Positions 17,325 through 63,167 of a stretch of DNA of 64,000 nt are shown piece after piece. The notes under the pieces were generated by a model that worked only from the letters and a program-made list of their open reading frames with translations, had not been told where the DNA came from and did not search any database. Made by a program: the position numbers and the translations under genes. Within the stretch, counting starts at the first letter, position 1, and each line of letters starts with the position of its first letter. This DNA is from Nannocystis bainbridge. Lineage in GTDB: Bacteria; Myxococcota_A; Polyangia; Nannocystales; Nannocystaceae. The stretch spans positions 288,001 through 352,000 of the forward strand of contig NZ_JAQNDL010000004.1 of NCBI RefSeq assembly GCF_028368995.1. The letters are read 5' to 3'.

Positions 17325-20099
17325 ATGACCCGTCTCATCGTCTCCAAGCTCCTCCCTCGCATCGCCTTGCTCTCCACTTCGCTCGCCATCGGCTGCGACG
17401 AGCCCGAGGCCGGCGAGACCGCCGATCTCGCCGCCGACCTGCAGGAGTTCGTCGTCGGCGCGCCGGTGGAGGTCTCGCTCGCCCCGGCCGACGCCTCGCC
17501 GATCACCCTCATCACATGTCCCGAAGGACAGGCATGCGGCGCCGAGCTGCCGGCGCCGGCCGCCACCTTCGTCACCCCGCAGATCGACGCGCGCCCCGAC
17601 CTGCGTGCGCGGGTCGGTTACGCCGCGCGCAAGCGCGTGCTCGCGGTCGCCGACCTCGGCGAGCGGTTCAAGAACGCTATCGACATCAAGTTCGTCGAGG
17701 GCAGCGGGGTTCAGGCCCGCGGCGGCGCGCTGGTCCTCGATTCCGCGGCGCCCGCCGCGAGTCGGGCCGGCCTCGCCGAGGTCCAGCGGCTGCTCGACGG
17801 CCAGGCCCGCGCCGCCGCGGTCGCCATGCACACCGTCGATCCCGAGCTGCTGCGCGCGTGGAAACGCGACGGCGAGCGGGCCACCGGCGAGGAGCTGCCC
17901 GACCTCACCTTGTGGCAGCAACTGTTCGTCGAGGCCGCCGACGATCGCGCCTTCGTGGCGCTGATCAACGACCTCAATCGGCTGCCGATCGTCGAGCTGG
18001 CGAGCGCCACGCCGTTGCCGGCGGCGCCGCCCGGGCTGGCCGGGGAGGCCGCCGAGGCGTTCGCCGCCGCGGCGCGCGAGCACGATCGGCTGCCGTGGCC
18101 CGACGCCGAGCGCTTCACCGCGAAGATCGGCAGCACCACCGCCGCCGTCGGGCCCGGGCTCGTCGATCCGACCCCGCCGACAGCGCTGCTCGCGGACGAC
18201 GACGACGCGACGCGCAGCGGCCACGCCGGCGCGCCCGCGACGCTCGCCGCTCCCGGAGCCGATCCGAGCGCGGTCGTCGGCGACTACCGACCGCTGCAGA
18301 CGTACACCGTCTCGGCGCCGTTCGGGATGGACTTCGACTATCTGCGCAGCTCGTTCTGGAACGCCTGGGGCAACGGCTGGGGCTACACCGACGTCGAGTT
18401 CAACTGGAACCGCAACCACGCCGATCTCGGGGCGATCGCCGGCAATGAGGTGCTCGCCAACTTGGTGCCGACGCGGGTGTGGAGCGGCTGGCAGAACGTC
18501 GTCGATCACGGCACCGGCGTGGTCGGCATCCTCAGCAGCACCGACGACGCCGTCGGCACCACCGGCCTGGTCCCGAGCGCGACCGTGCGGCTGTCGACCG
18601 AGGAGAACGTGTGGGGCTGGAACCGCGTCGCCTCGATCACCGCCGCCGCGGCGCAGTTCTGGCCGGGCGCGGTCATCCTGCTCGAGATGCAGACGAGCGC
18701 CGGCTTCGACTGCAACTTCAACGGCGCGGCCGACGGCAACGACCTCGTGCCCGCCGAGTGGGACCCCGCGGTCAAGGACGCCATCCGCACCGCCGTCGCC
18801 AACGGGCGGATCGTCGTCGAGGCCGCCGGTAACGGCGATGGTTGCGACATCGGCCACTTCGGCTTCAGCGGCGCCTTCTCGGCCACCGATCCGGCCCAGG
18901 ACTCGGGCGCGATCATCGTCGGCGCCGGCGTGCCGAGCACGCGCGCGCCCGAGGGCTTCAGCACCACCGGCGCGCGCGTCGACGTCCAGGGTCAGGGCTC
19001 GGGCATCGTCACCACCGGCTACGGCTCGCTGCACAACAGCGACGGCTACGACCGCGAGTACGCCAACGGCTTCAACGGCACCTCGGGCGCCTCGCCGATG
19101 ATCACCGGCGTCGCGGTCGCGCTGTCGGGCGTGCTCAACTTCCAGTTCGGCTCGACCTTCGCGCCGCGCGAGCTGCGGGCGCTGCTGCGCCGCGTGGGCA
19201 CGCCCCAGGGCCCCGGCGCGCACATCGGCCCGCGGCCCGACCTGCGACTTCAATCGCAGTACCTCACCGCGCGCCACGTCCAGATCCGCAACTCCGACTT
19301 CGACGGCGACGGCCGCGACGATCTGGTGTCGTGGCGGCCCGAGAACGGCACCTGGTACATCCTGTTCTCTGCCACCGGGCAGACCGCGTCGTACCAGTGG
19401 GGCCTGCTGGGCGACATCCCGGTGCCCGCCAACATGGCCGGCGACGCGCGGGCCGATCTGGTGGTGTTCCGCCCGGCCGACGGCACCTGGCACGTGCGCC
19501 CGTGGGACGCGCCGGCCTACTGGCTGTCGTACGGCCTGAACGGCGACATCCCGGTGCCGATGGATCACGACGGCGACGGCCTCGCCTCGCCGGCGGTGTT
19601 CCGCCAGGCCGTGATGAACGGGACCTCGCTGTCGCGCTGGTACATCCGCACCAGCGCGACCACCTCGACCACGTTCGACTGGGGCGAGCAGGGCGACATC
19701 CCGCTGACCGGCGATTTCGACCTCGACGGCCGCGACGATTTCGCCATCTATCGCGGCAACACCGGGACGTGGTGGATCTATCCGTGGACCGGGCAATGGT
19801 TCACGAAGAGCTGGGGCCTCCGCGGCGACATCCCGCTCGTCGACCGCGTCGCCAGCCGCGACCAGATCGCCGTGTGGCGCCCGAGCAACGGCACGTTCTA
19901 TCGCATGAACCTGCAGACGAGCGCCAATTCGTCGGCGCAGTGGGGCGCCGCCGGCGACCTGCCGCGCCTGGCCGACACCGACGGCAACGGCACCAGCGAA
20001 CGCATCTATTATCACCCGGAGACGGGCGTTTGGTACAACCTCGATCGCTGGACGGGCATCAGCTGGGGCCTGCCCAACGACGTGCCGCTGGCGCGCTGA
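17325..20099 (+). CDS. S8 subtilase lipoprotein with C-terminal FG-GAP-like repeats
   Basis: LAIGC lipobox; TDVE (Asp), DHGTGVVG (His), AAGNG, GTSGASP (Ser); DFDGDG and WGxxGDIP repeats. Confidence 0.9.
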   Translation: MTRLIVSKLLPRIALLSTSLAIGCDEPEAGETADLAADLQEFVVGAPVEVSLAPADASPITLITCPEGQACGAELPAPAATFVTPQIDARPDLRARVGYAARKRVLAVADLGERFKNAIDIKFVEGSGVQARGGALVLDSAAPAASRAGLAEVQRLLDGQARAAAVAMHTVDPELLRAWKRDGERATGEELPDLTLWQQLFVEAADDRAFVALINDLNRLPIVELASATPLPAAPPGLAGEAAEAFAAAAREHDRLPWPDAERFTAKIGSTTAAVGPGLVDPTPPTALLADDDDATRSGHAGAPATLAAPGADPSAVVGDYRPLQTYTVSAPFGMDFDYLRSSFWNAWGNGWGYTDVEFNWNRNHADLGAIAGNEVLANLVPTRVWSGWQNVVDHGTGVVGILSSTDDAVGTTGLVPSATVRLSTEENVWGWNRVASITAAAAQFWPGAVILLEMQTSAGFDCNFNGAADGNDLVPAEWDPAVKDAIRTAVANGRIVVEAAGNGDGCDIGHFGFSGAFSATDPAQDSGAIIVGAGVPSTRAPEGFSTTGARVDVQGQGSGIVTTGYGSLHNSDGYDREYANGFNGTSGASPMITGVAVALSGVLNFQFGSTFAPRELRALLRRVGTPQGPGAHIGPRPDLRLQSQYLTARHVQIRNSDFDGDGRDDLVSWRPENGTWYILFSATGQTASYQWGLLGDIPVPANMAGDARADLVVFRPADGTWHVRPWDAPAYWLSYGLNGDIPVPMDHDGDGLASPAVFRQAVMNGTSLSRWYIRTSATTSTTFDWGEQGDIPLTGDFDLDGRDDFAIYRGNTGTWWIYPWTGQWFTKSWGLRGDIPLVDRVASRDQIAVWRPSNGTFYRMNLQTSANSSAQWGAAGDLPRLADTDGNGTSERIYYHPETGVWYNLDRWTGISWGLPNDVPLAR

Positions 20100-20495
20100 C
20101 GCGACCGCGCCGCTCACACGCATTCGGTTGATTGACGATCCATGACGCATGGGGCCTTGCAGGCGTCATTCACGATGAGCTCCAGCCCGCGCGCGGCAAG
20201 ACGGCCGCGCGCGGGCCCTTGCCATTTGCATTGTCAGCAACAGACATGAGATGCAAGTCGAAGCGGCCGATTTCGTCGTTCGCCGCGGACCTTGCGGGCT
20301 GATGTCTGTTGCAATGTCAGCCACGCCCAGTGGAAGTGCGAGCGCGCATCGCCGCGTCGCGGGGCTCACGGAGATCGCCCGGCGACGTCGGCCGCTGCGC
20401 CCCGCTCACGCTCGAGGAACGTGCCAGCGCTTCGAGGTGCGTGCCCCTCCCTCGAGGCAGGCTCCTGATCTCGGTGCACGAGGAGGGCACCGGGA

Positions 20496-20537
20496 TGGCT
20501 TCGATGACATGGCGTGAAGGACATGTCCAAAAGAACA
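20496..20537. promoter_or_regulatory. three-unit array of the TGTC-N6-GACA-like motif
   Basis: tggc-ttcgat-gaca|tggc-gtgaag-gaca|tgtc-caaaag-aaca with exact 14-bp period; function unknown. Confidence 0.55.
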
Positions 20538-20742
20538 TCACCTGAGCGCCTCGCGGACGCGACAGCGCCGTTCGGCGCGAGCGGCTGCGCGCGGTCGCTC
20601 GCGCCGCCGCCGTCCCTTCGCGGCCGGGGCTTGCGGAACAGCTCGCTGACGGATCTCCGACAGGGGCGTCCCCGCTGACCTCGGTGCGGGCGGGCGTGTT
20701 AGGTTCGCCGCGCATGCGAAGGGCGCAGCGAGGGGGCGGCTG

Positions 20743-21654: not shown

Positions 21655-22183
21655 GCGCCAGCGAGCGCGAGCGTGACCCGCGGCACACTCTGCGAACGGC
21701 GGATGGCCGATTGTCGCCAGTTCCGCCGGTGCCAATCAGTGTGGCGACGCACCGGCCGATGCCTCGAGCGCGCACGGCGCCGTCCGCGGCCGTCGTGATT
21801 CGCGGACGTCCGACAGACCTGCTGGACCATGGTCACGTGTCCACCGCGAATCATGCGAGCGTCCGCGCCGGCGGGCCGTGCCGCGAATGTCGGCGCCGCG
21901 GGGCTGCTGCGCGCGCGCTGGCCCTGCGGGGCGTTCCCGAGCAGACGTCGACCGTCTGCGGCGCGTGAGGACAGGAAAAATCGCAAGTCTCTTCGGACAT
22001 GTCCGATCTACCAGGTGCAATGTCACTGGTGACAACGACGCGGACGGTGCACCCGCGAGCGTGAGGTTCGGCGGCGCGCAATTGTCGACGCCCCGCTCCG
22101 CGATCCGCGACGATTGACAGCGAGCGAGCGCCGACCCTACGGTCCGACTCGTAGCCGTGGCAATCGCTCATGAGGCATCCGGG

Positions 22184-25910: not shown

Positions 25911-26114
25911 GCGCTCGCGCAGCGAGGGGCGAGCAGGCCAGGCGAGCGTGGTCGCGGTGAGGTTGCGGCAGATCGGTGGCCGTGCGCCGACGACACCCGC
26001 TCTGCCGGATCTGCCACCGATGGGGCGGCCCGCGAGCCGGCCATAGGCGACGCGCCAGCCCGTGCATGGCCGACCTCGGCGCAGACACGCTGTGAGATGA
26101 TGAATGACCGAGAC

Positions 26115-26150
26115 GACATGTCGATAGGGACATGTCCTCCGGGCTATGTC
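26115..26150. promoter_or_regulatory. 14-bp-period TGTC-N6-GACA array between convergent genes
   Basis: gaca|tgtc-gatagg-gaca|tgtc-ctccgg-gcta|tgtc. Confidence 0.6.
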
Positions 26151-27935: not shown

Positions 27936-28879
27936 TGCAGGTCCAGGTGCTCGTCCTCGACGGGGTGTTCGACGCGGGGCTCGCTCTGGTGCTCGACACG
28001 CTCGACACCGCCAACGCGCTGGCGAGCGCGCCGGAGCAGCGGGCCCGCGTGGCGGTGGTCGGGGTGCGGCGACGGGTCCGGACGCACCTCGGCTTCGGGG
28101 TGCCGGTGGTGGAGCGGCCGCGGGCGCGGCCCGACGTCGTGATCGTGCCGGCGCTCGGGGCCAAGACGCCCGACGCGCTCGAGCGGGCGCTGGCGCGGCG
28201 CGACGTCGTCGACGCGACGGCGAGGCTGCAGGCCGCGGCCGCCGCGGGCACGCGGGTGACGGCGGCCTGCACCGCCACCTTCGTGCTCGGCGACGCCGGC
28301 CTGCTGGCGGGCCGCCGCGCGACCACGACCTGGTGGCTGGCGCCGTTCTTTCGCGCGCGCTTCCCCGCGGTCGCGCTGGACGACGCGCAGATGATCGTCG
28401 AGTCCGACAACATCGTCACCGCCGGCTCGGCCCTGGCGCACCTCGACCTCGCGCTGTGGCTGGTCCGCCGCCGCAGCCCGGCGCTCGCGCGCACGGTCGC
28501 CAATCACCTGCTCTACGACTCGCGCCCGTCGCAGGCGCCCTACGTGATGCCCGATCACCTGGCTCACGCCGATCCGCTGGTGGCCCGCTTCGAGGACTGG
28601 GCGCGCGGCCACCTGCGCGGCTTCACCATGGGCGCGGCGGCGCGGGCCGTCGGCGCGACCGAGCGCACGCTCGAGCGACGCGTGCGCGCGGTGCTCGGCA
28701 AGTCGCCGCTGTCGTTCGTGCAGGATCTGCGGGTGGCCCACGCGGTGCATTGCCTGCAGACGAGCGACGCGTCGCTCGACGCGATCGCTACCGAGGTCGG
28801 CTACAGCGAGGCGACGACGCTGCGCACGCTGCTGCGCCGTCGCACGGGCCGCGGGGTGCGAGAGCTGCGGCGGGCCTGA
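27935..28879 (+). CDS. GlxA/FtrA-family AraC regulator (DJ-1/PfpI + HTH)
   Basis: ACTATFVL, GLLAGRRATTTW, ERTLERR and IATEVGY. Confidence 0.9.
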   Translation: MQVQVLVLDGVFDAGLALVLDTLDTANALASAPEQRARVAVVGVRRRVRTHLGFGVPVVERPRARPDVVIVPALGAKTPDALERALARRDVVDATARLQAAAAAGTRVTAACTATFVLGDAGLLAGRRATTTWWLAPFFRARFPAVALDDAQMIVESDNIVTAGSALAHLDLALWLVRRRSPALARTVANHLLYDSRPSQAPYVMPDHLAHADPLVARFEDWARGHLRGFTMGAAARAVGATERTLERRVRAVLGKSPLSFVQDLRVAHAVHCLQTSDASLDAIATEVGYSEATTLRTLLRRRTGRGVRELRRA

Positions 28880-29138
28880 CAGCAGGCGCGGGGCGGCTCG
28901 CTCCGCGATCGTGGCGTGGGGGCTGCTTTCGTTCCGGGCGTGTCACGCGGCGATGCGGCGGGTCGTTCAATCGCTGCCGCTTCGACTCGCATCGGATCGA
29001 CAATGCGCCTCGCCGGGGCGGACGACGCGAATCGACGACCTCGATGCGGTCGCGGCGGATCGAGCCATCGCGCAATTGCTGGGTCCGCCGATTCGATCGC
29101 GCAGCGCCGCGGCTCGTCGCCGCGACGCTCGCTCGTCG

Positions 29139-33157: not shown

Positions 33158-33189
33158 GACATGTCCTTCAAGACATGCATGAACGGACA
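33158..33189. promoter_or_regulatory. 14-bp-period TGTC-N6-GACA array
   Basis: gaca|tgtc-cttcaa-gaca|tgca-tgaacg-gaca. Confidence 0.6.
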
Positions 33190-33907: not shown

Positions 33908-34228
33908 GCGCAGGCCCCGATCGCATGGGCACCACGGCATCCGCGGGGCACGCGGCGATCGGCAACAGATGCGACATGTCCCGAGAGACATGCGATGGAT
34001 CCGCGCGGCGTCCGGAAGTCGAGACCCCGCGCGAGCACAGCCCCGGGGCCGCCCGATCGCCCGACCGAAGGTCCGCGCCGATCCACGCCTCACGCGGTTC
34101 ACGTGGGCGCTCCGACGCGCGCCCGTCCGCTGCGTAGCGACGCCCCGCGGACGCGGTTCGCGGCTCCACCCGGGCTTGTGGTCGCGCGACGGATTGACAC
34201 GCCGTCTCGAGCCGGCGAAAGCTCGTGC

Positions 34229-35414: not shown

Positions 35415-35460
35415 TGTCCGTGAGGGCATGTGCGATCGGCCATGTCTTGAAGGACATGTC
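35415..35460. promoter_or_regulatory. three-unit 14-bp-period TGTC-N6-GACA array
   Basis: tgtc-cgtgag-ggca|tgtg-cgatcg-gcca|tgtc-ttgaag-gaca|tgtc. Confidence 0.6.
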
Positions 35461-35708
35461 CATTCAGCCTTGCTCGTAAGCGATGCGCGGCTGTTCGCAG
35501 CGCTCGATGCGCCGCAGGCGCTCGCGCAGTGGCGGGAGCTGCCCCCGGGTTGGCGGGCGGCCGGCGACACCACCCGCGAGCTCGACCGGCGGGCTGGACA
35601 GTAAACCACGGCTCGACCTGCGCCCGGGGAAGAGCGCTTGCAGGGCCCTCGCGCTCGTTTGCAGCCGCGAGGAAATTCCGGCGTTGCAAGGCGCGCACGT
35701 TTTCCCGC

Positions 35709-38001: not shown

Positions 38002-38149
38002 GAATCCGCGCAGCGGGGGCGGGTGAGCCTCACGCACCCGCGGATGTCTCTCGGGACAGGTCGGTCCGCAACCTGCGGGCGTCCCGAGTCCCGCAGGGCC
38101 GTACCGGAGTGCGTCTCCAGGTCGGCTGCTCGACGAGGCTCAACCCCAG

Positions 38150-38758: not shown

Positions 38759-39270
38759 CGATGGCAGGCGAGGGCACCCGGACCCACCACGACCCGCGGC
38801 TGTCCCGAGAGACATACGCGCCACAAACCCAGTCGCCCGGCGACCAGGCAGGGCCATGATGGTCTTCACAGGGCGGGCGAGGGGCGGCGCAGTGGGAGGC
38901 AGCGAGGTCCCCATGCCTCACGCGCAGGCGCGGCGGGCCTCTACGGACACGCCCCGTCGAGTCGATGGCAGGCGAGGGCACCCGGACCCACCACGACCCG
39001 CGGCTATCCCGAGAGACATACGCGCCACAAACCCAGTCGCCCGGTGACAGGCGGGGCCGCGACGGTCTTCACAGGGCGGGCGAGGGGCGGCGCAGCTGAC
39101 TCACCACGACAATCGGCTGTCCCGAGAGACATACGCGCCACGAGCCCCTTTGCGCGGTGACCAGGCGGGGCCACGACGGTCTTCACAGGGTGGGCGAGGG
39201 GCGGCGCAGTGGGACGCAGCGAGGGGCCCCATGCCTCACGCGCAGGCGCGGCGGGTCTCTGCGGACAGGG
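38759..39270. repeat. ~204-bp direct repeat (2 copies plus a partial third)
   Basis: atggcaggcgagggcacccggacccaccacgacccgcggct(g/a)tcccgagagacatacgcgccacaaacccagtcgcccgg at 38761 and 38965; partial copy from ~39114. Confidence 0.9.
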
Positions 39271-39376
39271 CCCCGTCGCACCCTCCGCGCCGAGCATGTG
39301 GCATGGCAGGTCTCGCGTCGCGACGGACCCGCTGCGCCGCCCCTCGTCCGCCCGCTCGACAATATCCTGGCCCCGC

Positions 39377-39515
39377 CCCGAGGGACCCGCGACAGGAGCC
39401 GCGCGACGAGACCTGTCCCGAGGGACAGGCGACAGGAGCCGCGCGACGAGACCTGTCCCGAGGGACACGCGACAGGAGCCGCGCGGCGAGACCCCGAGGG
39501 ACGCGCGACGAGAGC
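39377..39515. repeat. 40-bp tandem repeat x~3
   Basis: gcgacaggagccgcgcgacgagacctgtcccgagggaca repeated; each full unit carries TGTC-ccgagg-GACA. Confidence 0.9.
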
Positions 39516-46551: not shown

Positions 46552-46583
46552 TGACCGCAGGGACATGCCCGAACGGACATGTC
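46552..46583. promoter_or_regulatory. 14-bp-period TGTC-N6-GACA-like array
   Basis: tgac-cgcagg-gaca|tgcc-cgaacg-gaca|tgtc. Confidence 0.55.
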
Positions 46584-46608
46584 CCTGCGGTAAGGTCGGG
46601 CGGAGCGA

Positions 46609-47553: not shown

Positions 47554-47595
47554 CTCGCACCTTCCTCGCGTCATTAAGCCGGATGAGCAACGGCA

Positions 47596-47627
47596 TGTCC
47601 TTATGGACATGTACATTGCGACATGTC
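47596..47627. promoter_or_regulatory. 14-bp-period TGTC-N6-GACA array
   Basis: tgtc-cttatg-gaca|tgta-cattgc-gaca|tgtc, ~40 bp upstream of the lipoprotein start. Confidence 0.6.
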
Positions 47628-47952
47628 TTTGGGATCAGCCGCCGGCAGCCCGCCTGCGCATCCGTGCGCGCCCATACCCATTGGGGCGTCCGCAACGGAA
47701 GATGCTCAGGTGATAAAACTGCAAAACAGTTAATCCTTGCAACAAGTCTTATACAACCTCCGAAACCAACGCAAGGAATTTAAGTTTATCGGTGTCGATT
47801 GTTTGTTTTACTCGATCATGAGGGCAGCACCTCGGACGAGCGTCCTTTGCGCGTGGGGCAAATCGCGCTCCGCGGATGCGAGCCGGGGCGCGACCCAACG
47901 CAAAACGGCGCCCACGAGGGCGCCGTCCGGCTTCGCGATCGCGGGGCGCGGG

Positions 47953-50921: not shown

Positions 50922-53060
<2,139 letters not shown>

Positions 53061-53335
53061 GGGGGCGGCCCCGCGACATGTCCGCGACGCGAACGACGGT
53101 CGGCGCCGCCGACCTCGACCGCACCCGCGTCGGAGGTCGCGGACGGTCGAGGTGCATGCTGCGCCGCGCAGGTCGGACGTCGTGGCAGGGGGACGCGAGG
53201 ATGCGAGGCGACGCACGCACGGGGGCGCGGAGACCCACGAGAGCGCGCCCCGGCAAGGTCACGCGGGGACGCAAAGTCAGCGAGCCGCGAGCGGTTTGCA
53301 CGGCGCGCGTTCCTCGGTAAAAGCCGCCGGCAAGG

Positions 53336-55696
53336 ATGTCTCGCCCTCGTAAACCCGAACGCTCCGCGCCGCGCAAACCCACCCCGAGCCGCCGCGACGA
53401 GACCCGCGGGCCGGCGTCGCGCGAGGCTCCGCCGGTGCCGAGCGTGCCGGGCAGCGAGGCGGACGCGGCAGTGAAGGCGGGAGCGAGCGACGAGCCGCGC
53501 GAGACGACGCCACGCGAGGCTCCGCCGGCGCCGAGCGTGCCGGATCGCGCGGCGGGCGAGGCGAGCGCGACCGACGAGACGCCGGCAGCGGTCGAGGCGG
53601 CCGCGGACGCGGTGACGGGCGAGCGCGGGGCGAGCGCGACGCCTGAACTTCAGGACATGCCCGATCGACCCGGTATCGAAGGTCAGGCGCTTCAAGACAT
53701 GTCGCAAGAGACAGCTGTTTCCGTGGACGCACCGAGCCCGCTGGGCGACCTCGACTATCACCTGCTGGCCGAGGGCACGCACCTGCGGCTGTGGGAGTGC
53801 ATGGGGGCGCGGCTGGCCCCCGGCGGGGAGGGCACGCACTTCGCGGTGTGGGCCCCGAACGCGCGGGCGGTCAGCGTGATCGGCGGGTGGAACGGGTGGG
53901 ACGGCGAGCGCGACCCGCTGCACGCGGCGCGCGGCGGGGTGTGGACCGGGTTCGTGCCGGCGGCCCGGCGCGGGATGCTCTACAAGTTCCGCATCGTCGG
54001 CGCCGACGGGCAGGTCCACGACAAGGCCGACCCGCACGCGCTGATGAGCGAGGTGCCGCCGGCGACGGCGTCGGTGATCTGGGACCACGCGTACGAGTGG
54101 GGCGACGCGAGCTGGCTGGCGCGCCGGGCCGAGCGGCAGGGGCCGTCGGCGCCGATGTCGATCTACGAGGTGCACCTGGGCTCGTGGCTGCGCGGGCCGG
54201 GCGGCGAACACCTGTCGTATCGAGCGATCGCGCCGAAGCTTATCGCCCACGTGCGCGCGCTCGGGTTCACCCACGTCGAGCTGATGCCGCTGACGGAGCA
54301 CCCGTTCTACGGCTCGTGGGGCTACCAGGCGACCGGTTACTTCGCGCCGACGCGCCGCTACGGCGAGCCGCAGGAGCTGATGGCGCTGATCGACGCGCTG
54401 CATCAGGCGGGCATCGGCGTGATCCTCGACTGGGTGCCGGCGCACTTCCCCAACGACGGGCACGGGCTGGTCCACTTCGACGGCACGCACCTTTACGAGC
54501 ACGCCGACCCACGCCGCGGGGTCCACCCGGACTGGAACACGCTGATCTTCAACCTGGCGCGCCACGAGGTGCGGGCGTTCCTCCTCAGCTCGGCGATGAT
54601 GTGGCTGCAGGCGTTCCACGTCGACGGGCTGCGGGTCGACGCGGTGGCGTCGATGCTGTACCTCGACTACTCGCGCAAGGAGGGCCAGTGGCTGCCGAAC
54701 CACCTCGGCGGGCGCGAGAACCTCGAGTCGATCGAGTTCCTGCGCGCGCTCAACCAGGCGATCCACCGCGAGGTGCCAGGGGCGGTCTCGATCGCGGAGG
54801 AGTCGACGGCCTGGCCAGGGGTGTCGCACAGGGTCGAGGACGGCGGGCTCGGGTTCGACTTCAAGTGGGACATGGGCTGGATGCACGACACGCTGCGCTA
54901 CTTCGGGCGCGACCCGGTGACGCGCTCGCAGCACCACCGCGACGTCACGTTCCGCATGATGTACGCGTACTCGGAGCGGTTCATGCTGCCGCTGTCCCAC
55001 GACGAGGTGGTCCACGGCAAGGGCTCGCTGGTCCGTAAGATGTCCCCGGGGACAGGTGGCTCGGCGGCCCGGCTGGCCAATCTGCGCCTGCTCTACGCGT
55101 ACATGTTCGGGCTGCCGGGCAAGAAGCTGCTGTTCATGGGCGACGAGCTGGCCCAGGTGCGCGAGTGGAACCACGACGGGCAGCTCGACTGGGGCCTGCT
55201 GGCCGACGCCGACCACGCGGGGCTGATGCGGTGGGTCGGTCGCCTCGGCCACCTGCTGCGCGCCGAGCCGGGCCTCCACGAGCTCGACCACGACCCGCTG
55301 GGGTTCCGCTGGGCTGTGGTCGAGGACTACCAGCGCAGCACGCTGGCGTTCCTCCGCCGACCGCGGCAAGGCGCGGTGATCCTTGTGATCCTGAACTTCA
55401 CGCCGATGACGTGGACGAACTACACGGTGCCGTTCGAGGCGCCGGGCGAGTGGGTGCGGATGATGTCGTCCGACGAGGGGCAGTTCGGCGGGGCCGGTCA
55501 CGCGGGGCCAGAGCGGCTGATCGCGGACCACTCGGCCGGCGGGGCGCTGCCGTGCGCGGCGACGCTGGACTTGCCGCCGCTGACTGCCCTGATCTACCGC
55601 GGGCCAGAGGTAAAGGCGTACGACGCGGCGGCGCTCGAGCTGCGCGAGGCGCTGGCGGCCGAGGCCGAGGCGGCCCGCACGGACGCGGCGAGCTGA
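53336..55696 (+). CDS. glgB: 1,4-alpha-glucan branching enzyme
   Basis: FAVWAPNA, IYEVHLGSW, SWGYQ, DWVPAHF, DGLRVDAVASM, AEEST and LSHDEVVHGK; true start may be later (~53699-53723). Confidence 0.95.
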   Translation: MSRPRKPERSAPRKPTPSRRDETRGPASREAPPVPSVPGSEADAAVKAGASDEPRETTPREAPPAPSVPDRAAGEASATDETPAAVEAAADAVTGERGASATPELQDMPDRPGIEGQALQDMSQETAVSVDAPSPLGDLDYHLLAEGTHLRLWECMGARLAPGGEGTHFAVWAPNARAVSVIGGWNGWDGERDPLHAARGGVWTGFVPAARRGMLYKFRIVGADGQVHDKADPHALMSEVPPATASVIWDHAYEWGDASWLARRAERQGPSAPMSIYEVHLGSWLRGPGGEHLSYRAIAPKLIAHVRALGFTHVELMPLTEHPFYGSWGYQATGYFAPTRRYGEPQELMALIDALHQAGIGVILDWVPAHFPNDGHGLVHFDGTHLYEHADPRRGVHPDWNTLIFNLARHEVRAFLLSSAMMWLQAFHVDGLRVDAVASMLYLDYSRKEGQWLPNHLGGRENLESIEFLRALNQAIHREVPGAVSIAEESTAWPGVSHRVEDGGLGFDFKWDMGWMHDTLRYFGRDPVTRSQHHRDVTFRMMYAYSERFMLPLSHDEVVHGKGSLVRKMSPGTGGSAARLANLRLLYAYMFGLPGKKLLFMGDELAQVREWNHDGQLDWGLLADADHAGLMRWVGRLGHLLRAEPGLHELDHDPLGFRWAVVEDYQRSTLAFLRRPRQGAVILVILNFTPMTWTNYTVPFEAPGEWVRMMSSDEGQFGGAGHAGPERLIADHSAGGALPCAATLDLPPLTALIYRGPEVKAYDAAALELREALAAEAEAARTDAAS

Positions 55697-55722
55697 GGCT
55701 CGCGCGCCCGTAGGGTGCATGG

Positions 55723-55780
55723 GACATGTTCTGAGGGACATGTCCCATGGGGCATTTACACATGTCCTGAGAGACATGTG
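55723..55780. promoter_or_regulatory. double array of TGTC-N6-GACA
   Basis: gaca|tgtt-ctgagg-gaca|tgtc-ccatgg-ggca then caca|tgtc-ctgaga-gaca|tgtg. Confidence 0.6.
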
Positions 55781-55970
55781 CATGGCGCGCGCTGCGACGG
55801 GATGACGCGGCGCGGAGGCGCGACGTGGTGATGCGGTGCCGCGCCGCGCGAGTTCGGACCGAGCGGCAGGGCAGCGATCGGGCGCGGGCCGTGATCGTGG
55901 TCAATCGGTGTTCTGGGCCGTCGGAGGGGAGTTGCGTGTCGGACTTCGGGTTCGGGTATGGTTCGCGACC

Positions 55971-57359
55971 ATGCGCGCCGCTCGTCGTTGCCTCCCGCTC
56001 GCCGCGTTCGTCCTCGCCTGTCAGCCCACGGGCGCCGGGACGGACAGCGACGACGCGACGACGATGAGCCCTTCGACGTCGTTCGGCGGGAGCTTCACGA
56101 CCACCGAGGCGACGCCGACGACAGGGACGGAGACGGGCGCGACGACCAGCTCGAGCGAGGGGAGCTCGGAAGCGGGGACGGAGTCGGAGACTTCGGGGCC
56201 CGACACAGCCACGGGCGAGCCGGGGCTGTCGGAGGACGAGGCGCTGCTTCGTCAGGCGATCGCCGGCGAGGTCGACGCCGAGGAGGCGATGCGCACGATC
56301 GCCGGCCGCGGCGGCTTCCCGGTGGCGGCGGCGTCGGGCGGGTTTCTGTTCGCCTGTCTCTGCGGACAGGGCGCGTGGACGCTGGCCGGCGATCACGACG
56401 ACTGGGCGCCGGCGCCGATGAGCCAGGCGGGGTCGCTGTGGTGGATCGAGGCCGACATCGCCGCGCCGGACGGCAGCCTCTATAAATTTCACGAGCCGGA
56501 CTCGGCGCAGTGGATCGCCGATCCGTACGGGCGCCGCCACGGCTACGACGATTTCGGGACGTTCTCGCTGGTGCGCGCGAGCGCGGCCCACCTCGAGCGC
56601 TGGTATGCGATCGAGGACGCGGGCCTCGGGCTGGCGCCGCGCGAGCTCGAGGTGCTGGTGCCGCAGGACGGGGCGTTCACGCATGCGCTGTACGTGCACG
56701 ACGGGCAGAACCTGTTCGACCCGGGGGCTTTCTTCGGCGGCTGGCAGCTGCCCGCGAGCGCGCCGCCGAACATGCTCGTGGTCGGGATCACCAACACGCC
56801 GGCGCGCATGGACGAGTACACGCAGGTGCCCGACGAGCTCGACGGTCAGCCGATCGGCGGCGACGGGGCGGTCTACGCGGAGCTCGTCGACTCCGTCATC
56901 CGGCCGCGCATGGAGGCGGCGTACGGGCCGGCGGTGAAGGTGGGGACGATGGGCTCGTCGCTCGGGGGGCTCATCAGCCTGGTGATCGCGGACCTGTACC
57001 CGGACCGCTACGACATGGCGATCAGCCTGTCGGGCACGGTCGGCTGGGGCTCGCTCGAGCTGCACAACGAGACGATCCTCGAGACGTACGAGGCCGCAGG
57101 CAAGCGCGGCTTCGCGATCTACGTCGACAGCGGCGGCGAGGGCACGTGCGTCGACGCCGACCAGGACGGGATCGAGGACGACGCGCCCGACTCGTTCGAC
57201 AACTACTGCGAGAACGCGCAGCTCTACGCGATCTTGCAGGCGAGCGGCTACACGCCCGAGGTCGACGTGTTCTACGTGCACGCGCCGGGGGCGATGCATA
57301 ACGAGCTCGAGTGGGCGGCGCGCGTGGGCGTGCCGCTGCAGATCTTCGCAGGGCTGTGA
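55971..57359 (+). CDS. exported esterase (Fes/IroE-type alpha/beta fold) lipoprotein
   Basis: FVLAC lipobox, LYVHDGQNLF, MGSSLGGL, YVDSG and HNELEW; possible CBM48-like N-domain (YKF...WIADP). Confidence 0.85.
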   Translation: MRAARRCLPLAAFVLACQPTGAGTDSDDATTMSPSTSFGGSFTTTEATPTTGTETGATTSSSEGSSEAGTESETSGPDTATGEPGLSEDEALLRQAIAGEVDAEEAMRTIAGRGGFPVAAASGGFLFACLCGQGAWTLAGDHDDWAPAPMSQAGSLWWIEADIAAPDGSLYKFHEPDSAQWIADPYGRRHGYDDFGTFSLVRASAAHLERWYAIEDAGLGLAPRELEVLVPQDGAFTHALYVHDGQNLFDPGAFFGGWQLPASAPPNMLVVGITNTPARMDEYTQVPDELDGQPIGGDGAVYAELVDSVIRPRMEAAYGPAVKVGTMGSSLGGLISLVIADLYPDRYDMAISLSGTVGWGSLELHNETILETYEAAGKRGFAIYVDSGGEGTCVDADQDGIEDDAPDSFDNYCENAQLYAILQASGYTPEVDVFYVHAPGAMHNELEWAARVGVPLQIFAGL

Positions 57360-57375
57360 CGCGCGCCGGCGCGGC

Positions 57376-57995
57376 TCAGGCAGACCCGCAGCGCGGCAGG
57401 CAAGACTCGAGCTCCTCGCCGAACGCCGCCTTGCCGATGCAATCCAGCCGGACCACCTCGTCGGGCTTCTGCAGGCATTGCTCGAAGTCTGCCGCCGGCA
57501 GCAGCGCGCGATGGACGAGTCTGGTGGCCCAGAAGTCATCGACGGCCGCGCCGCTGTTCTCGAACACGGTGCCGTCCGCTTGCACGTAGAGGAAGATCCA
57601 CCGCTTCGTGTCGTCCGTAGCGGATGAATCACCCGGATCTGCCCCGGCGTGTGGTCGCGCAGGGCCTTCAGCGCGCACTCCAGCGCTGCGGGGTTCTCCA
57701 CGACGGACGCTTCCTTCTCGCCAATGACGAGGATGTCGTCGCACGCGATGGTCGCTTCGCACACCACCTCGGTGATCTTCGCCCCGCAACTCTCGTCGAG
57801 GGCGAAGCAGCAACAATCGCTCGCTGGCTCGTCGAGGGGGCACACCTCGCCGCCGGTCGATGTCGGTTCCGTAGTCTCGGCCGTGGTCTCGGCCGTGGTC
57901 GTCGGGGCGTCCATGGTCTCCGCTTTACCGGGAGCACACGCCGCGCAGAGCAGGAGGAGCAGGCCACACCGAGGATGGATCGTTAAGCAAGTCAT
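57376..57995 (-). pseudogene. frameshifted Cys-rich lipoprotein (or sequencing error)
   Basis: N-half MTCLTIH...LCAAC...DHTPGQIRVI in one frame; C-half SATDDTKRWIFLYVQADG...CGSA in another; switch near 57625. Confidence 0.65.
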
Positions 57996-58030
57996 GCGCC
58001 GAGCGCAGCATGCTGGCGGCTCTCTGCGCA

Positions 58031-58058
58031 TGTCCTCATGGACATGTTCTCATGGACA
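58031..58058. promoter_or_regulatory. 14-bp-period TGTC-N6-GACA array
   Basis: tgtc-ctcatg-gaca|tgtt-ctcatg-gaca. Confidence 0.6.
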
Positions 58059-58113
58059 GCTTTGTAAAGCTGTCCGCTGGAGCGCGTCGATCGGTGTGAA
58101 CCCGATGGCCGAA

Positions 58114-58347
58114 TCAGCGCAGGTCGAGCTCGACGTCGACGCCCTTCTGGCGGCAGGCGGCGAGGATCTCCTCGGTCAGCTGATCGGTGTCACGGTTGTC
58201 GCCGGGCGGGAGGGCCAGGACCACGCGCGGGCGCTGGGCCTCGAGCGCCGCCATGCGTTCGCGGTGCTCGAGGAAGCGGGAGAAGCCGGCGTAGGCGACG
58301 CCCCCGAGCACGGCGACGAGCACCACCAGCGCGAGCAGGATCGGCAT
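58114..58347 (-). CDS. small single-TM hypothetical protein
   Basis: Hydrophobic N-terminus, GC3-rich codons. Confidence 0.65.
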   Translation of the reverse strand: MPILLALVVLVAVLGGVAYAGFSRFLEHRERMAALEAQRPRVVLALPPGDNRDTDQLTEEILAACRQKGVDVELDLR

Positions 58348-58380
58348 GTCGGTCCAGGATAGCGCGGTGGCGGGCGGGCG

Positions 58381-59949
<1,569 letters not shown>

Positions 59950-60123
59950 AGAGGCGCAAACGGTACGCCGAGCGCGGCCCCACCGACAAGCCGGCGGGCG
60001 GCGCGTTCGATCACGCGTGCGCGCGGGTGAGGCCGCAGGGGGCATGCAGCGGGAGGTCGGAGTGCTCGAGCACACCGACCTCCGTCACATCGTCGCGACG
60101 CGGGGCAGGGCCCGCGCCGGCGG

Positions 60124-62064
60124 TCACGCCTGGGCGCGACCGAGGCTGCGAGGATCGGTGAGGCGACCGGTGACGGCCGAGGCGGCGGCGACGGCCGGCG
60201 ACACCAGGTAGACCGGACCGGGCGCGCCCATGCGGCGATCGAAGTTGCGGTTGGTCGTGCTCGCGGTGGTCTCGCCCTCGAGCGGGATCCCCGGACCGTT
60301 GCCGATGCACGAGCCGCAGCCCGGCGCGGTCACCACGGCCCCGAGCTCGCGGAACAGCCCGAGCAGGCCCTCCTGCTCGGCCGAGGCGCTGACCTCGGCG
60401 CTCGACGGCGTGACGGTGACGCGGACCTTCGGCGCGAGGGTGCGGCCGCGCAGGACTTCGGCGGCGGCGCGCAGGTCGGCGAGCGAGCCGCCGGTGCACG
60501 AGGCGATGACGACGTTGTGGATCGGCACGTCGACGACGTCGGCCAGAGCGGCGCGGTTGCGCGAGTCACCGGGGGTGGCGACGGTGAGCGGGACCTCGGC
60601 GAGGTCGATGGTGATGGTGCGTACGTACTCGGCGCCCTCGTCGGGCTCGACGAACATCGCGTCGGTGTCGACGCCGGGCCGGCGGTCGCGCAGGAACTCG
60701 CGCACGGGCGCGCACGGCTCGACCACGCCGGTCATCAGGCCGCCCTCGACGGTCATGTTGGTGAGCACGCTGAGCTCGTCGACGTTCCACTGATCGAGGC
60801 CGGGGCCGCCGATCTGGATCACGCAGGTGTCGGTGGCCGAGGTGCGCCACTGCTCCTCGCGGAAGTACGGGTCGCCGATGATGTGGAGGATGAGGTCCTT
60901 CGGCGAGACGACGCCGCGGGCGTCGCCGGTGACCCAGATCCGCACGGTCTTCGGCACGGTGACCGGGACCAGGCCGGTGCGCAGCGCGAAGGCCATGGCC
61001 GTCGAGCCGACGCCGAACGCGAAGGCGTTGAGCACGCCGGCGGTCGGGGTGTGCGAGTCGGTGAGGATGATGATGGTGCCGGGGTTGCCGTACTGCTCGA
61101 CGACGATGCGGTGGCACACGCCGGCGTCGTACTTCTGGCCGGGCCCGTGGATCCGGATGCCGTTCTTGAGGCTGGCGCTGACCATCTCGTCGCGCAGCTG
61201 GCGGGCCGAGTCGAGCCGCTGCTTCTTGACGCGCAGCGGGACCGTCGGCTGATCGATGAGGACGAAGTGGTCCTCGAAGGCGGCCGCGAGCTCGGGGTTC
61301 TTGATCGGCGTGGTGCCCCACTCCTGCTCGTAGAGGGCCATCACCATGCCGCCGGTGTACTCGTGCACGCCGCGGAAGCCGACCGCGCACAGCACCTGAT
61401 CGCCCGGCTTGACGGCGGCGATGCCGAAGCGCTCGCCGCCGGTCCAGGTGCGCGCGGCGATGATCTTCTCGGTGCAGTTGAGCGGGCGCGCGGGGGCGTC
61501 GGTGCGGTACTCGGGCTCGATCTCGCCGGCCAGCAGGCGGCTGCCGTAGTGCAGCAGGCCGCCGTTTTGCACGACAGCGCGGAAGAACGGCGGCAGCTCG
61601 GCCGCGAGGCCGCCGAGGTCGACGTCCTCACCGGCCTGCAGGCGGCCGACCACCCCGAAATCGGTGGTGAACGGCAGGCCGCTGTAGACCATGTTCTCCT
61701 GGAAGATCCGCTGGAAGCTGCGGGCCACCACGAGCTCGATGCCGGCGCCCTGGTGGGCGACCACCGCGACCTCGCGGCTCGAGCCGGAGCCGTAGGCGTC
61801 GCCGCCGACGACGACCTGGAAGCCGCCGTCCTTGACGCTGTCCTTTTGGACCTGCTCCTTGAAGTTCTCGAGGAAGTAAGGACCGAGGATGTCGCCGGTG
61901 TAGCCGAGCGTGCAGGCCGCGCCGCTGATCATCAAGTCGGTGTTGACGCCGTAGTGGAGCGGCGGAGCGGCGTCTGCGCGGGCGTCGAGATCCGTGCCCG
62001 TCAGCTGCTGCGCGATGCCCTGCGCGTCGTCGGTGAGCCAGAGGATCCTGCCGCGAAGCTTCAT
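60124..62064 (-). CDS. aconitase-family dehydratase with N-terminal swivel (LeuD-like) fused to catalytic (LeuC-like) domain
   Basis: NTD, YGSGSSRE and ARSFQRIF, followed by DH, GVCH, DSHT, ASCTGG, PGCGSCIG, STTNRNF and YLVSP. Confidence 0.88.
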   Translation of the reverse strand: MKLRGRILWLTDDAQGIAQQLTGTDLDARADAAPPLHYGVNTDLMISGAACTLGYTGDILGPYFLENFKEQVQKDSVKDGGFQVVVGGDAYGSGSSREVAVVAHQGAGIELVVARSFQRIFQENMVYSGLPFTTDFGVVGRLQAGEDVDLGGLAAELPPFFRAVVQNGGLLHYGSRLLAGEIEPEYRTDAPARPLNCTEKIIAARTWTGGERFGIAAVKPGDQVLCAVGFRGVHEYTGGMVMALYEQEWGTTPIKNPELAAAFEDHFVLIDQPTVPLRVKKQRLDSARQLRDEMVSASLKNGIRIHGPGQKYDAGVCHRIVVEQYGNPGTIIILTDSHTPTAGVLNAFAFGVGSTAMAFALRTGLVPVTVPKTVRIWVTGDARGVVSPKDLILHIIGDPYFREEQWRTSATDTCVIQIGGPGLDQWNVDELSVLTNMTVEGGLMTGVVEPCAPVREFLRDRRPGVDTDAMFVEPDEGAEYVRTITIDLAEVPLTVATPGDSRNRAALADVVDVPIHNVVIASCTGGSLADLRAAAEVLRGRTLAPKVRVTVTPSSAEVSASAEQEGLLGLFRELGAVVTAPGCGSCIGNGPGIPLEGETTASTTNRNFDRRMGAPGPVYLVSPAVAAASAVTGRLTDPRSLGRAQA

Positions 62065-62199
62065 GCGAAGTTCGGTTTAACACCCGTGCGCAGGCTTCGG
62101 AAGGTAAAGAGGGGAGTCGGCGGGCCGGCGTGACGTGGCTCAGCTCACCGGTGCTCCGCCGGATGGCCGGCCCAGTGCGGTGGAGTATGTTCGCGGCGC

Positions 62200-63111
62200 A
62201 TGTTCTTGCGCACGGCCCTTCGCTCCCTCTCGCTGACCGCGCTGGTCTCCACGACTGTTCTTCCAGGTTGCGCCTCCAAGCCGGCGACGTCGGCGGAGAC
62301 TCCGGCCCCCGGCGGCGAGGATCCCGCAGGCGCGGCGGCCCGTGACGCCGATCCCGCGACGGTGGAGGCGCTCAAGGCCGCCATCGCCGGCCCGCAGCGC
62401 TCGGCTGAAAACCGCGCCCGCGACGTGTACCGCCACCCGCTCGAGACGCTGCTGTTCTTCGGCCTCAAGAAGGACCAGACGGTGGTCGAGCTGTGGCCCG
62501 GCGGCGGCGGGTGGTTCACCGAGGTGCTGGCGCCGACCCTGCGCGACAGCGGCAAGCTCATCGTCACCAACTTCGACCCCAACGGCCCGGCCGACGCCTA
62601 CCAGACCCGCAACGGCAAGAAGTTCCTGGAGAAGCTGGCCAGCGCGCCGGAGGTCTACGACAAGGTCGAGGTCGTGACGGTGACCGACCCGTCGGCGCTG
62701 GTGCTCGCGCCGGAGAACTCGGTCGACCTGGTGGTCACGTTCCGCAACACCCACGGGTGGGTCGAGAACGGCATCGACGCGGCGGTCTACAGCGCGGCCT
62801 TCAAGGCACTCAAGCCCGGCGGCGTGCTCGGCGTCGAAGCCCACCGCGGCAAGCCGCAGCCGGTCGACGACCCGAAGAAGGTCGCCGAGACCGGATACCT
62901 GCCCGAGGACTGGGTGGTCGCCCGCGTCGAGTCGTTCGGCTTCAAGCTGCAGGCCCGCTCGGAGATCAACGCCAACCCGAAGGACACGAAGGACTACGAG
63001 AAGGGCGTGTGGACCCTGCCGCCGTCGTTCGAGCTCGGGGACAAGGACCGCGACAAGTACGCGGCGATCGGCGAGAGCGACCGCATGACGCTCAAGTTCG
63101 TCAAGCCGTAA
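62200..63111 (+). CDS. predicted exported class I SAM methyltransferase lipoprotein
   Basis: LPGC lipobox, RDVYRHPLETL, VELWPGGGGWF, LKPGG, SEINANPKD, GVWTLPP and IGESDRMTLKF. Confidence 0.85.
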   Translation: MFLRTALRSLSLTALVSTTVLPGCASKPATSAETPAPGGEDPAGAAARDADPATVEALKAAIAGPQRSAENRARDVYRHPLETLLFFGLKKDQTVVELWPGGGGWFTEVLAPTLRDSGKLIVTNFDPNGPADAYQTRNGKKFLEKLASAPEVYDKVEVVTVTDPSALVLAPENSVDLVVTFRNTHGWVENGIDAAVYSAAFKALKPGGVLGVEAHRGKPQPVDDPKKVAETGYLPEDWVVARVESFGFKLQARSEINANPKDTKDYEKGVWTLPPSFELGDKDRDKYAAIGESDRMTLKFVKP

Positions 63112-63137
63112 GCGAGGCCCGTTCGCGGCCCAAAACA

Positions 63138-63167
63138 AAAGGACAGGTCCCTAGGGACCTGTCCTTT
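63138..63167. terminator. perfect 30-bp palindrome between convergent genes (bidirectional terminator-like)
   Basis: aaaggacaggtccctagggacctgtccttt, with A/T tails on both sides. Confidence 0.7.

Follow-up and report, generated by a model that had tools for sequence, protein, structure and literature searches.

A 64-kb stretch of the genome of Nannocystis bainbridge (NCBI RefSeq assembly GCF_028368995.1, contig NZ_JAQNDL010000004.1, positions 288,001 to 352,000 of the forward strand; hereafter the window, with position 1 as its first letter) carries many copies of a short interrupted palindrome, TGTC-N6-GACA, whose distribution and possible function are the subject of this report. The genes close to these sites, as assigned with Pfam, form an ordinary myxobacterial mix of kinases, an FHA protein, hydrolases, the glycogen genes malQ, glgX and glgB, and a 5'-nucleotidase. 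Among and within these genes, the 14-bp unit occurs either singly or chained into phased arrays. When 14-bp units with up to two mismatches each are chained, arrays of 2-4 units are obtained at 20496, 21986, 26105, 33162, 35415, 46552, 47596, 52567, 55727, 58031 and 63146. Abutting units meet in a junction, GACATGTC, of which there are 13 copies in the window. The individual features are the following, where fold z denotes the z score of the array folded as RNA against shuffled sequences.

17517..17530: single perfect unit, inside the long open reading frame (ORF) of a subtilase-like protein
20496..20537: 3-unit array, separated by ~400 bp from the preceding stop (20099) and by ~206 bp from the following FHA-domain gene (20743)
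21986..22034: 2-unit array plus an out-of-phase perfect unit at 22021, preceding the alpha/beta hydrolase gene at 22157 by ~123 bp
26105..26146: 3-unit array with two perfect GACATGTC junctions, between the convergent stops 25910 and 26230; fold z -2.99
33158..33189: 2-unit array, within the long stretch that precedes the gene at 33305; fold z -1.09
33973..33994: perfect unit with CATG at both flanks, 70 bp past the stop at 33907
35415..35470: 4-unit array, beginning 26 bp past the stop (35389) of a phosphoglycerate-mutase-family gene; fold z -3.51
38045..38058: single perfect unit, 44 bp past the stop at 38001
38801..39467: four perfect units (38801, 39118, 39414, 39454) within 113-bp and 40-bp tandem repeats, in a 1.6-kb convergent intergenic region
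46552..46593: 3-unit array with a 17-bp-stem hairpin, 16 bp past the stop (46609, minus strand) of a Cys-rich lipoprotein gene; fold z -6.38
47592..47637: 3-unit array, 5'-proximal, upstream of the same Cys-rich lipoprotein gene; fold z -1.77
52567..52594: two in-phase units inside a glgX-like coding sequence, where A/T-ending codons are used
53075..53082: isolated GACATGTC junction, 15 bp past the glgX-like stop
53696..53713: perfect unit together with a junction, a few bases ahead of the probable glgB start (start inferred)
55041..55054: single perfect unit, inside the glgB-like coding sequence
55723..55780: two-unit array with a perfect unit 9 bases on, beginning 24-31 bp past the glgB-like stop (55696); fold z -4.20
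56355..56368: single perfect unit, inside an esterase-family coding sequence
58027..58075: 2-unit array with an adjoining GGACA-N12-TGTCC hairpin, 56 bp past the stop of a small gene (58114, minus strand); fold z -4.20
63142..63173: degenerate, compensated array GACAGGTC / GACCTGTC, filling the 74-bp gap between the convergent stops 63111 and 63186, with a 13-bp-stem hairpin that is preceded by an A-run and followed by a short T-run; fold z -4.18

The perfect unit is strongly over-represented in the window. Against a background of 100 shuffles that preserve dinucleotide composition, its 18 copies compare with a mean of 0.70 (standard deviation 0.81, maximum 3), and none of the 100 shuffles reaches 18. 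This corresponds to a density of 0.28/kb, or about one copy per 4 kb. The spacing is specific as well: when TGTC-Nk-GACA is counted for k from 0 to 20, k=6 yields 18 copies and each other value 0-5. The sequence-only reading which drew attention to the motif had listed 16 of these copies, all of which lie where it placed them, and had overlooked two (22021 and 56355). Its rough expectation of 0.4 copies per 64 kb lies near the shuffle mean, and the excess of k=6 over other spacings, which it had set beforehand as a test, is plainly present. It had also set the motif apart, by its spacer, from the binding site of the Myxococcus regulator MrpC, and the MrpC/CRP-type TGTC-N8-GACA is indeed found just twice in the window and twice in the Nannocystis flanking sequences described below, compared with 18 and 47 copies for k=6.

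Units abut head-to-tail, which places a CATG every 14 bp. The corresponding period, TGTC-N10-TGTC or its reverse complement, is found in 15 cases in the window, and in the window and the Nannocystis flanks together two CATG lie 14 bp apart in 52 cases, 28 bp apart in 19 and 42 bp apart in 13, compared with 2 cases for a distance of 13 bp and 8 for 15 bp. Within the arrays, the element kept best is CATG, and the outer half-sites are degenerate. Outside TGTC, the symmetrized flanks of the 18 window sites carry C in 26 of 36 and A in 21 of 36 positions, and inside it the symmetrized sites prefer Y-Y-K, from which an extended half-site CATGTCC results; CATGTC-N6-GACATG is present 7 times and ATGT-N8-ACAT 10 times in the window. 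Units and junctions also stand alone, as 22 of 32 perfect junctions are without a perfect partner half-site. The spacer of the window sites fits YYNNRR in 12 of 18 cases. In composition, spacers are mirror-symmetric (C-T-T / A-A-G), with A at the first position in 0 of 74 cases. The complementarity of spacer pairs 1-6, 2-5 and 3-4 (0.42, 0.23 and 0.27) is close to that expected from composition (0.37, 0.29 and 0.28), i.e., the spacer shows no covariation. Since spacers differ from unit to unit, the window arrays are not recent duplications; Tandem Repeats Finder (TRF) detects a 14-bp period in just two of them (46549-46581 and 58029-58058). The list of chained units agrees with the arrays that had been recognized by eye from the letters, and the accompanying statements that the spacer is mostly YYNNRR and that the arrays are not simple duplications are upheld.

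The distribution of the motif among organisms was traced by scanning the genomes of 185,579 species with two perfect junctions in phase as the query, which matched at least 107 loci. Among the matches listed, which are a sample and whose counts stand for proportions rather than totals, 72 of 107 loci stem from ten Nannocystis/Nannocystaceae assemblies (22 from Nannocystis sp. RBIL2, 10 from N. pusilla, 8 each from N. punicea, N. exedens and N. radixulma, and 16 from five metagenome-assembled genomes, MAGs), in line with the family that had been guessed. The other 35 come from Actinomycetota, roseobacters, Pseudomonas, Bradyrhizobium and others. Compared with the 107 loci, the window gave no match in megablast, and matches of 66-87% identity in blastn (68-87% within Nannocystis loci). 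In 201 kb of sequence flanking 53 Nannocystis loci, which represent the five named Nannocystis species and the MAGs and in which the matched double junctions (hereafter seeds) were masked with 60 bp on either side, TGTC-N6-GACA occurs 47 times (0.23/kb), and the other spacings with k from 0 to 14 occur 0-4 times each. The 84 kb flanking 23 non-Nannocystis loci hold three copies. Among the matches listed, seeds are spread across the 13.2-Mb chromosome of N. punicea. Extrapolation from 265 kb chosen around arrays would give some 2,600-3,700 perfect units per genome of 11-13 Mb. The sites are genome-wide in Nannocystis and its relatives, and are a lineage marker of Nannocystaceae DNA in metagenomes.

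Sites are also enriched within genes. For this analysis, genes were called by their third-position G+C, a procedure whose stops are reliable and whose starts are not. In 170 called genes without contact to a seed (157.6 kb), 22 sites are present as opposed to 0.95 in 300 codon-order shuffles (maximum 4), a roughly 23-fold enrichment, and other spacings with k from 3 to 10 yield 0-2 sites in coding DNA. The most enriched object there is TGTCC-N4-GGACA, with 16 copies vs 0.10 expected; GACATGTC follows with 8 vs 1.5, six control palindromes or dyads show no enrichment, and CATG overall is slightly depleted (441 vs 518). The 28 coding sites are distributed over the three frames (6/10/12) and both strands, a few of them being located in low-complexity ORFs which are possibly false calls (L005, L052). 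Furthermore, third codon positions inside coding sites are A/T in 34 of 105 cases (32%), compared with 6.4% overall. Enrichment in all frames, together with the A/T third positions, means that the motif is favoured at the DNA level despite its codon cost. Thus, either selection or a motif-generating process acts at the level of DNA.

Relative to genes, the arrays are concentrated just past stop codons. Among 56 double-junction seeds in Nannocystis loci, convergent genes flank 21, co-directional genes 16 and divergent genes a single one, whereas 6 fall into coding calls and 12 are found at locus edges. In 11 of the 16 co-directional cases the upstream stop is, as read from the table, no more than ~110 bp away. 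When 54 seeds are assigned to 100-bp zones, 32 fall after a stop, 4 before a start, 3 into both zones, 8 into coding calls and 7 elsewhere, and the preference for the after-stop over the before-start zone has a binomial p of 2e-7 given the zone sizes. Perfect units reach a density of 1.95 per kb in the 100 bp after stops, compared with 0.36 before starts, 0.63 in other intergenic DNA and 0.14 in coding DNA, and 30 of 65 single perfect units are found within coding calls. In some cases a convergent gap is wholly filled by an array (~41 bp in L077, 53 bp in L017, 58 bp in L073), and in L029 the stop codon is part of an outer half-site (TGAC). In the window, about nine arrays or units are located 16-84 bp past a stop (26105, 33973, 35415, 38045, 46552, 53075, 55723, 58027 and 63142), and four arrays are nearer a 5' end (20496, 21986, 47592 and 53696). 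In the 20 kb from 44001 to 64000, terminator patterns of a hairpin plus T-run number 5 vs 5.3 expected, none of them at an array, and the sigma-70-like promoter consensus is found 0 times vs 0.6 expected. The mixed locations described in the sequence-only reading, i.e., upstream of genes, between convergent genes and inside coding sequences, are therefore real; it had missed the main trend towards gene 3' ends, as well as the hairpin potential of adjacent junctions and the match to PadR operators. Its judgement that the sites do not constitute an ordinary regulon operator agrees with their frequency of about one per 4 kb, the coding enrichment, and the 32 seeds after a stop compared with 4 before a start.

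Conservation of the sites could be followed in three pairs of loci from different Nannocystis species, which are homologous over 0.6-4 kb at 90-93% identity and were read as orthologous. Seed junctions, being identical by ascertainment, were excluded from the substitution counts. Under an automatic rule for recognizing units, changes affect 3 of 20 half-site, 12 of 48 spacer and 53 of 497 remaining alignment positions. When three more in-phase units of the gap shared by L008 and L081 are added by a stated rule, 5 of 44 half-site positions have changed vs 21 of 66 spacer positions (Fisher p 0.02), which is suggestive, in this small sample, of half-sites being better conserved than spacers. The window array at 46552 has a counterpart in Nannocystis sp. 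RBIL2, located after the homologous lipoprotein gene, whose two versions are only ~68-70% identical; three CATG cores are in the same phase there and the spacers are unrelated. This shared phase may reflect independent gain, or an alignment that anchors on the motif. In two of four comparisons (L044/L063 and L008/L046, position ~2036), interspecies homology ends exactly at an array, with different genes beyond, and arrays may therefore mark rearrangement or insertion boundaries.

The geometry of the arrays has a counterpart in the operators of the PadR family. The consensus of the family in Firmicutes is ATGT-N8-ACAT (PMC4517056; PMC10295242), and the dimer of Bacillus subtilis PadR recognizes CNTGNA-N6-TNCANG, in which two half-sites of 6 bp flank a spacer of equal length (PMC5728393, section 18). 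According to the latter source, the crystal contained twice the expected number of dimers, with end-to-end stacked duplexes creating a 'bridge' operator 14 bp away, which is bound in the same mode and with a Kd of 8.9 nM, compared with 8.3 nM for the native operator. In the pseudo-continuous DNA of this crystal, PadR dimers are positioned every 14 bp and CATG is read from both sides (PMC5728393). The arrays described here have the geometry of this 18-bp operator, with two 6-bp half-sites, a C-N-T-G core and a 6-bp spacer, and CATG is shared in the same manner between units 14 bp apart; a CATG read from both sides by neighbouring dimers would be expected to be the best-kept part of an array. 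A cooperative dimer polymerizing every 14 bp, as had been suggested from the sequence, thus has a structural precedent (PMC5728393). A further precedent is provided by the PadR-fold proteins StbA of plasmid R388 and AspA of pNOB8, PadR-like helix-turn-helix (HTH) proteins which bind arrays of short repeats, coating them cooperatively or spreading on them into a protein-DNA superstructure (10.1101/2022.04.29.490116). Those systems act on direct repeats at one plasmid centromere, whereas here inverted half-sites are scattered over the chromosome and the motif is known from DNA alone.

Outside Nannocystis, the double junction is in some loci a neighbour of PadR genes. Of the 33 distinct non-Nannocystis loci among the matches listed, 10 have a PadR gene, as recognized by Pfam and a hidden Markov model (HMM), directly beside it, most of them actinobacterial (L019, L022, L031, L036, L048, L050, L057, L069, L088 and L091). 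The double site GACATGTC-N6-GACATGTC is located at about position 2001, 621 or 301 of these ten loci, and the neighbouring gene is of the PadR (+Vir_act_alpha_C) type. At least four of the loci (L022, L036, L048 and L050) are also beside a gene for an RPE65-type carotenoid oxygenase. The double site beside PadR genes looks like an autoregulatory operator, and its surroundings look like a conserved PadR/RPE65 regulatory module. The window itself has an RPE65 gene at 12562-14013, and no PadR gene was found in it. Two genes next to arrays were considered as sources of a possible binder and rejected, namely the Cys-rich lipoprotein gene, which is flanked by arrays, and the ORF of 200 aa at 33305: their translations look secreted or membrane-bound, and neither has a family match.

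We propose that the 14-bp unit is the double-stranded DNA site of a symmetric HTH dimer and that arrays of it act as boundary elements at gene ends, bound by a clade-specific PadR-like protein, a reading to which we assign a probability of about 0.5. The dimer would bind the unit through its HTH domain, with (CA)TGTCC-N4-GGACA(TG) as the extended form. The full site would be the 18-bp dyad CATGTC-N6-GACATG, neighbouring copies of which would overlap by the palindrome CATG and thereby generate the 14-bp period. An array of 2-5 junctions could accordingly be coated by 1-4 dimers, each turned by ~120 degrees relative to the next, with CATG common to neighbours. The candidate binder is a clade-specific winged-helix protein resembling PadR. 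Coated arrays would serve as 3' boundary elements, i.e., as roadblocks or insulators that stop or limit read-through, with single sites scattered genome-wide and multi-unit arrays in the first 100 bp past stops, often filling convergent gaps. For the binding mode, geometry and precedent are the guides. A double-stranded DNA site of a symmetric dimer is favoured over an RNA hairpin because of the strict spacing, the mirror-symmetric and non-covarying spacers, the degenerate outer half-sites and the sites inside genes; the fixed 14-bp distances point to helical phasing, since hairpins would tolerate variable loops. With thousands of sites per genome, linkage of a PadR gene to them is not to be expected. 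A more far-reaching version of the proposal, in which a PadR-like protein coats post-stop arrays as sequence-programmed roadblock terminators or insulators and, through the single sites within genes, is also a sequence-specific nucleoid protein, appears unlikely when taken as a whole. Such roadblocks could even be ligand-switchable, since PadR proteins sense small molecules.

Several observations weigh against the proposal of a PadR-like dimer at gene ends. Half of the perfect units, namely 32 of 65 in the window and the Nannocystis flanks, are without CA/TG on either flank, and the C of CNTG is indispensable in B. subtilis PadR, with a 19-38-fold loss (PMC5728393). In addition, the sixth half-site position, which is A/T in PadR operators, is here C/G (the C of TGTC and the G of GACA) and invariant by the definition of the motif. 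A PadR-like binder, if there is one, must therefore read the site differently. PadR operators occur in one or two copies, as opposed to extrapolated thousands per genome here, mostly past stop codons, also inside genes and with no linked PadR gene. An HMM built from five of the locus-encoded PadR proteins and searched against 105 of the 107 loci and the window matches in non-Nannocystis loci only, with no match in the window or the Nannocystis loci; Pfam finds no PadR among 72 window ORFs, 33 of which were a further set whose sole additional DNA-binding protein belongs to the MerR family (35752-36159). The double site is also found next to other regulators: in Pseudomonas, it is located between a sigma-54 activator gene (GAF-PAS-AAA-HTH_8) and a GFO_IDH_MocA oxidoreductase gene (L033 and L054, with the same site sequence in L084), and in Bradyrhizobium it adjoins a GntR/FCD gene (L074). 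These neighbours show that the geometry alone does not prove the PadR family, and other regulator families may use the dyad. The putative roadblock function, for its part, is suggested by the location of the arrays and the apparent scarcity of classic terminators, and in the window the convergent gaps 14013-14103 and 28879-29139 carry no array. The unreliable starts of the gene caller place some 5'-proximal sites, e.g., the one at 53700, in the coding class, and under the automatic unit rule the conservation counts differ between spacer and rest (p 0.008) and not between half-site and spacer (p 0.52; three pairs only).

The folding potential of the arrays has to be added to these adverse points. 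Two adjacent junctions are self-complementary, so that each double junction can fold into an 8-10-bp stem. When 12 window arrays are folded as RNA, six reach z scores of -3.0 to -6.4 relative to shuffles, the array at 47592 takes a middle place (z -1.77), and the other five are not more stable than shuffles (z above -1.1). Perfect stems of 13-17 bp, the outer parts of which are element-specific, are found at 46552, 55723 and 63142. Beyond the junctions, the stem is extended by 0 bp in 32 of 74 Nannocystis seeds and by at least 4 bp in 9; over six flanking positions, the complementarity in these 74 seeds is 2.47 vs 2.06 in re-paired controls, a value reached by 8 of 5000 controls. A hairpin component is thus real for a subset, a minority, of the arrays.

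Four other explanations were ranked in the order repetitive extragenic palindromic (REP)/REPIN-like elements, RNA 3'-end hairpins, a HIP1-like iterated palindrome and a giant promoter regulon. In enterobacteria and pseudomonads, REP elements, bacterial interspersed mosaic elements (BIME) and REPINs are high-copy palindromic sequences of alternating orientation, located in 3' or convergent intergenic DNA, with hairpin potential and lineage-specific occurrence, and the array units resemble them in copy number, orientation, hairpin potential and lineage restriction. As to location, the seeds are placed after stops (32 of 54) and between convergent rather than divergent genes (21:1), but 30 of 65 single units fall within coding calls, where sites are enriched (22 vs 0.95). 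On this explanation, which we regard as improbable although it leads the four, a dedicated enzyme (a transposase of the RAYT type or the like), with the conserved bases as its recognition site, would spread or maintain hairpin repeats that are tolerated mainly in 3' intergenic DNA. The 8-10-bp stems, the z scores of about -3 or lower with some perfect 13-17-bp stems, the weak complementarity excess in the outer flanks, the homology breaks exactly at arrays in 2 of 4 comparisons and the larger tandem repeats which carry the motif would all be accommodated. However, elements of this kind share a 20-40-nt imperfect palindrome as consensus, which the arrays do not, as only their half-sites are common: each 14-bp unit has no consensus beyond 8-10 fixed bases, spacers are unrelated between all arrays (with the TRF period of 14 in two of them), and the phase is strict, without variable loops. 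Moreover, 32 of 74 seeds have no stem extension, and the sites are common in coding sequences, with ~23-fold enrichment in all frames. No transposase was seen, in short loci only and with no proper search for one. The arrays could, with a still smaller likelihood, be 3'-UTR hairpins at the RNA level that end transcription or protect the 3' end, their sequence being read by an RNA-binding factor or arising as a by-product. Their position 8-70 nt past stops, often serving both convergent genes, the strong predicted hairpins at 46552, 55723, 58027 and 63142, and the compensated junction pairs at 63142, 55759, L023 and L035 speak for this, as does the number of canonical terminators, which does not exceed chance (5 vs 5.3 in 44001-64000) and implies the need for another 3'-end signal. 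But intrinsic (Rho-independent) terminators require a U-tract, and although hairpins are predicted in 6 of 12 arrays, none of the terminator-like patterns with a T-run in 44001-64000 coincides with an array. Five of the 12 arrays fold no better than shuffles, the inner spacer lacks covariation, on the sense strand the mismatches in junction pairs are G·U in 18 cases and A·C in 12, a difference that is not significant, and Rfam at its gathering threshold gives no match in the window. Fixed spacing and identical stem sequences would be needless for hairpins, and sites are also present in coding sequences and 5' regions.

In cyanobacteria, the highly iterated palindrome HIP1, a contiguous 8-mer that shows no phasing, is over-represented in coding and non-coding DNA and bends codon choice. 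The present motif resembles it as a short palindrome enriched in both kinds of DNA in one clade, with codon use bent around it, and its junction GACATGTC is likewise an 8-bp palindrome (13 in the window, 8 vs 1.5 in coding DNA); a system of repair, recombination or methylation directed at CATG-containing palindromes could have made or kept it, with no architectural protein involved. We give this little credence, slightly less than an RNA hairpin, because the split dyad TGTCC-N4-GGACA (16 vs 0.10) is more enriched than the contiguous palindrome, CATG overall is slightly depleted in coding DNA (441 vs 518), and the fixed 6-bp dyad spacing, the exact 14-bp phasing and the concentration of phased arrays at gene ends would be left unexplained. 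Least probable of all is a very large regulon whose promoters would be controlled through the unit, as its operator, by a global transcription factor, either PadR-like or from another family. The PadR-type operator geometry, the plausible autoregulatory operator in ten non-Nannocystis loci and the 5'-proximal window arrays at 47592, 53696, 21986 and 20496 would fit such a factor. A location at most 100 bp before a start is found for 4 of 54 seeds vs 32 after a stop, convergent regions hold 21 seeds and divergent ones a single seed, and sites recur about once per 4 kb, next to functionally unrelated genes and with enrichment in coding DNA, all of which argues against it.

Two further classes of iterated sites invite comparison. 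The chromosome-organizing sites matS, SBS and NBS number a few tens per genome and are confined to one chromosomal region. The analogy to them that had been drawn for the present motif fails, as its density (0.28/kb in the window and 0.23/kb in the Nannocystis flanks) extrapolates to thousands of sites, tied to gene 3' ends. The DNA uptake sequences of Neisseria and Haemophilus are short words over-represented in genes which form inverted pairs at terminators just past genes. They resemble the motif in being over-represented both in genes and just past them, and differ in having neither fixed-spacing dyads nor phased arrays.

A literature search aimed at the motif and the clade, which covered mostly titles and the beginnings of abstracts, with subscription journals outside it, gave no description of the motif. 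Queries with the motif strings GGACATGTCC, GACATGTC, TGTC-N6-GACA and variants returned, among the top-ranked titles, p53 response elements and no bacterial binding site, and the titles and abstract beginnings found for Nannocystis palindromes, myxobacterial RAYT/REPIN, convergent genes and terminators, and repetitive extragenic palindromic elements do not describe it either. The motif is of a known kind, that of clade-specific iterated palindromic elements and operator-like arrays, and was itself not found in print. If a protein coats the arrays, Nannocystis would mark many gene ends by a protein-bound DNA signal; to our knowledge, bacteria are not known to mark gene ends genome-wide in this manner. 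The PadR-like boundary proposal, if true, would bear on how transcription is ended or insulated in very G+C-rich genomes, where an apparent scarcity of classic terminators is here shown for one 20-kb stretch. Should the arrays instead be selfish REP-like elements, they would stand out among these by their small size, their strict phasing and their spread into coding sequences.

The motif is in some places part of larger repeats. In the window, tandem repeats of 113 bp (x2) and 40 bp (x3.7) at 38700-39520 carry it in the 1.6-kb convergent gap, and in N. punicea (L009, 2076-2420) each of several ~64-bp tandem repeats does so. Beside the window repeats lies a 152-aa ORF (38150-38608, minus strand) which has no family match and is, by eye, lower in G+C. 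Two other blocks of tandem repeats, at 1356-1584 (71 bp x3.2) and 32063-32290 (63 bp x3.6), are without the motif. The region from 40000 to 48000 has a G+C content of ~68%, compared with 71-77% elsewhere, and encodes large proteins without Pfam match, a DUF5689 protein and the 5'-nucleotidase; this DNA may have been acquired, or its expression may differ. The MerR-family gene is preceded by a MerR-style promoter palindrome, CTTGAC...GTCAAG, which is unrelated to the 14-bp motif, and is followed by two alpha/beta hydrolase genes. Finally, positions 5462-10630 encode a 1,722-aa signalling protein that combines a kinase-like domain with AAA_16, GAF and a histidine kinase module.

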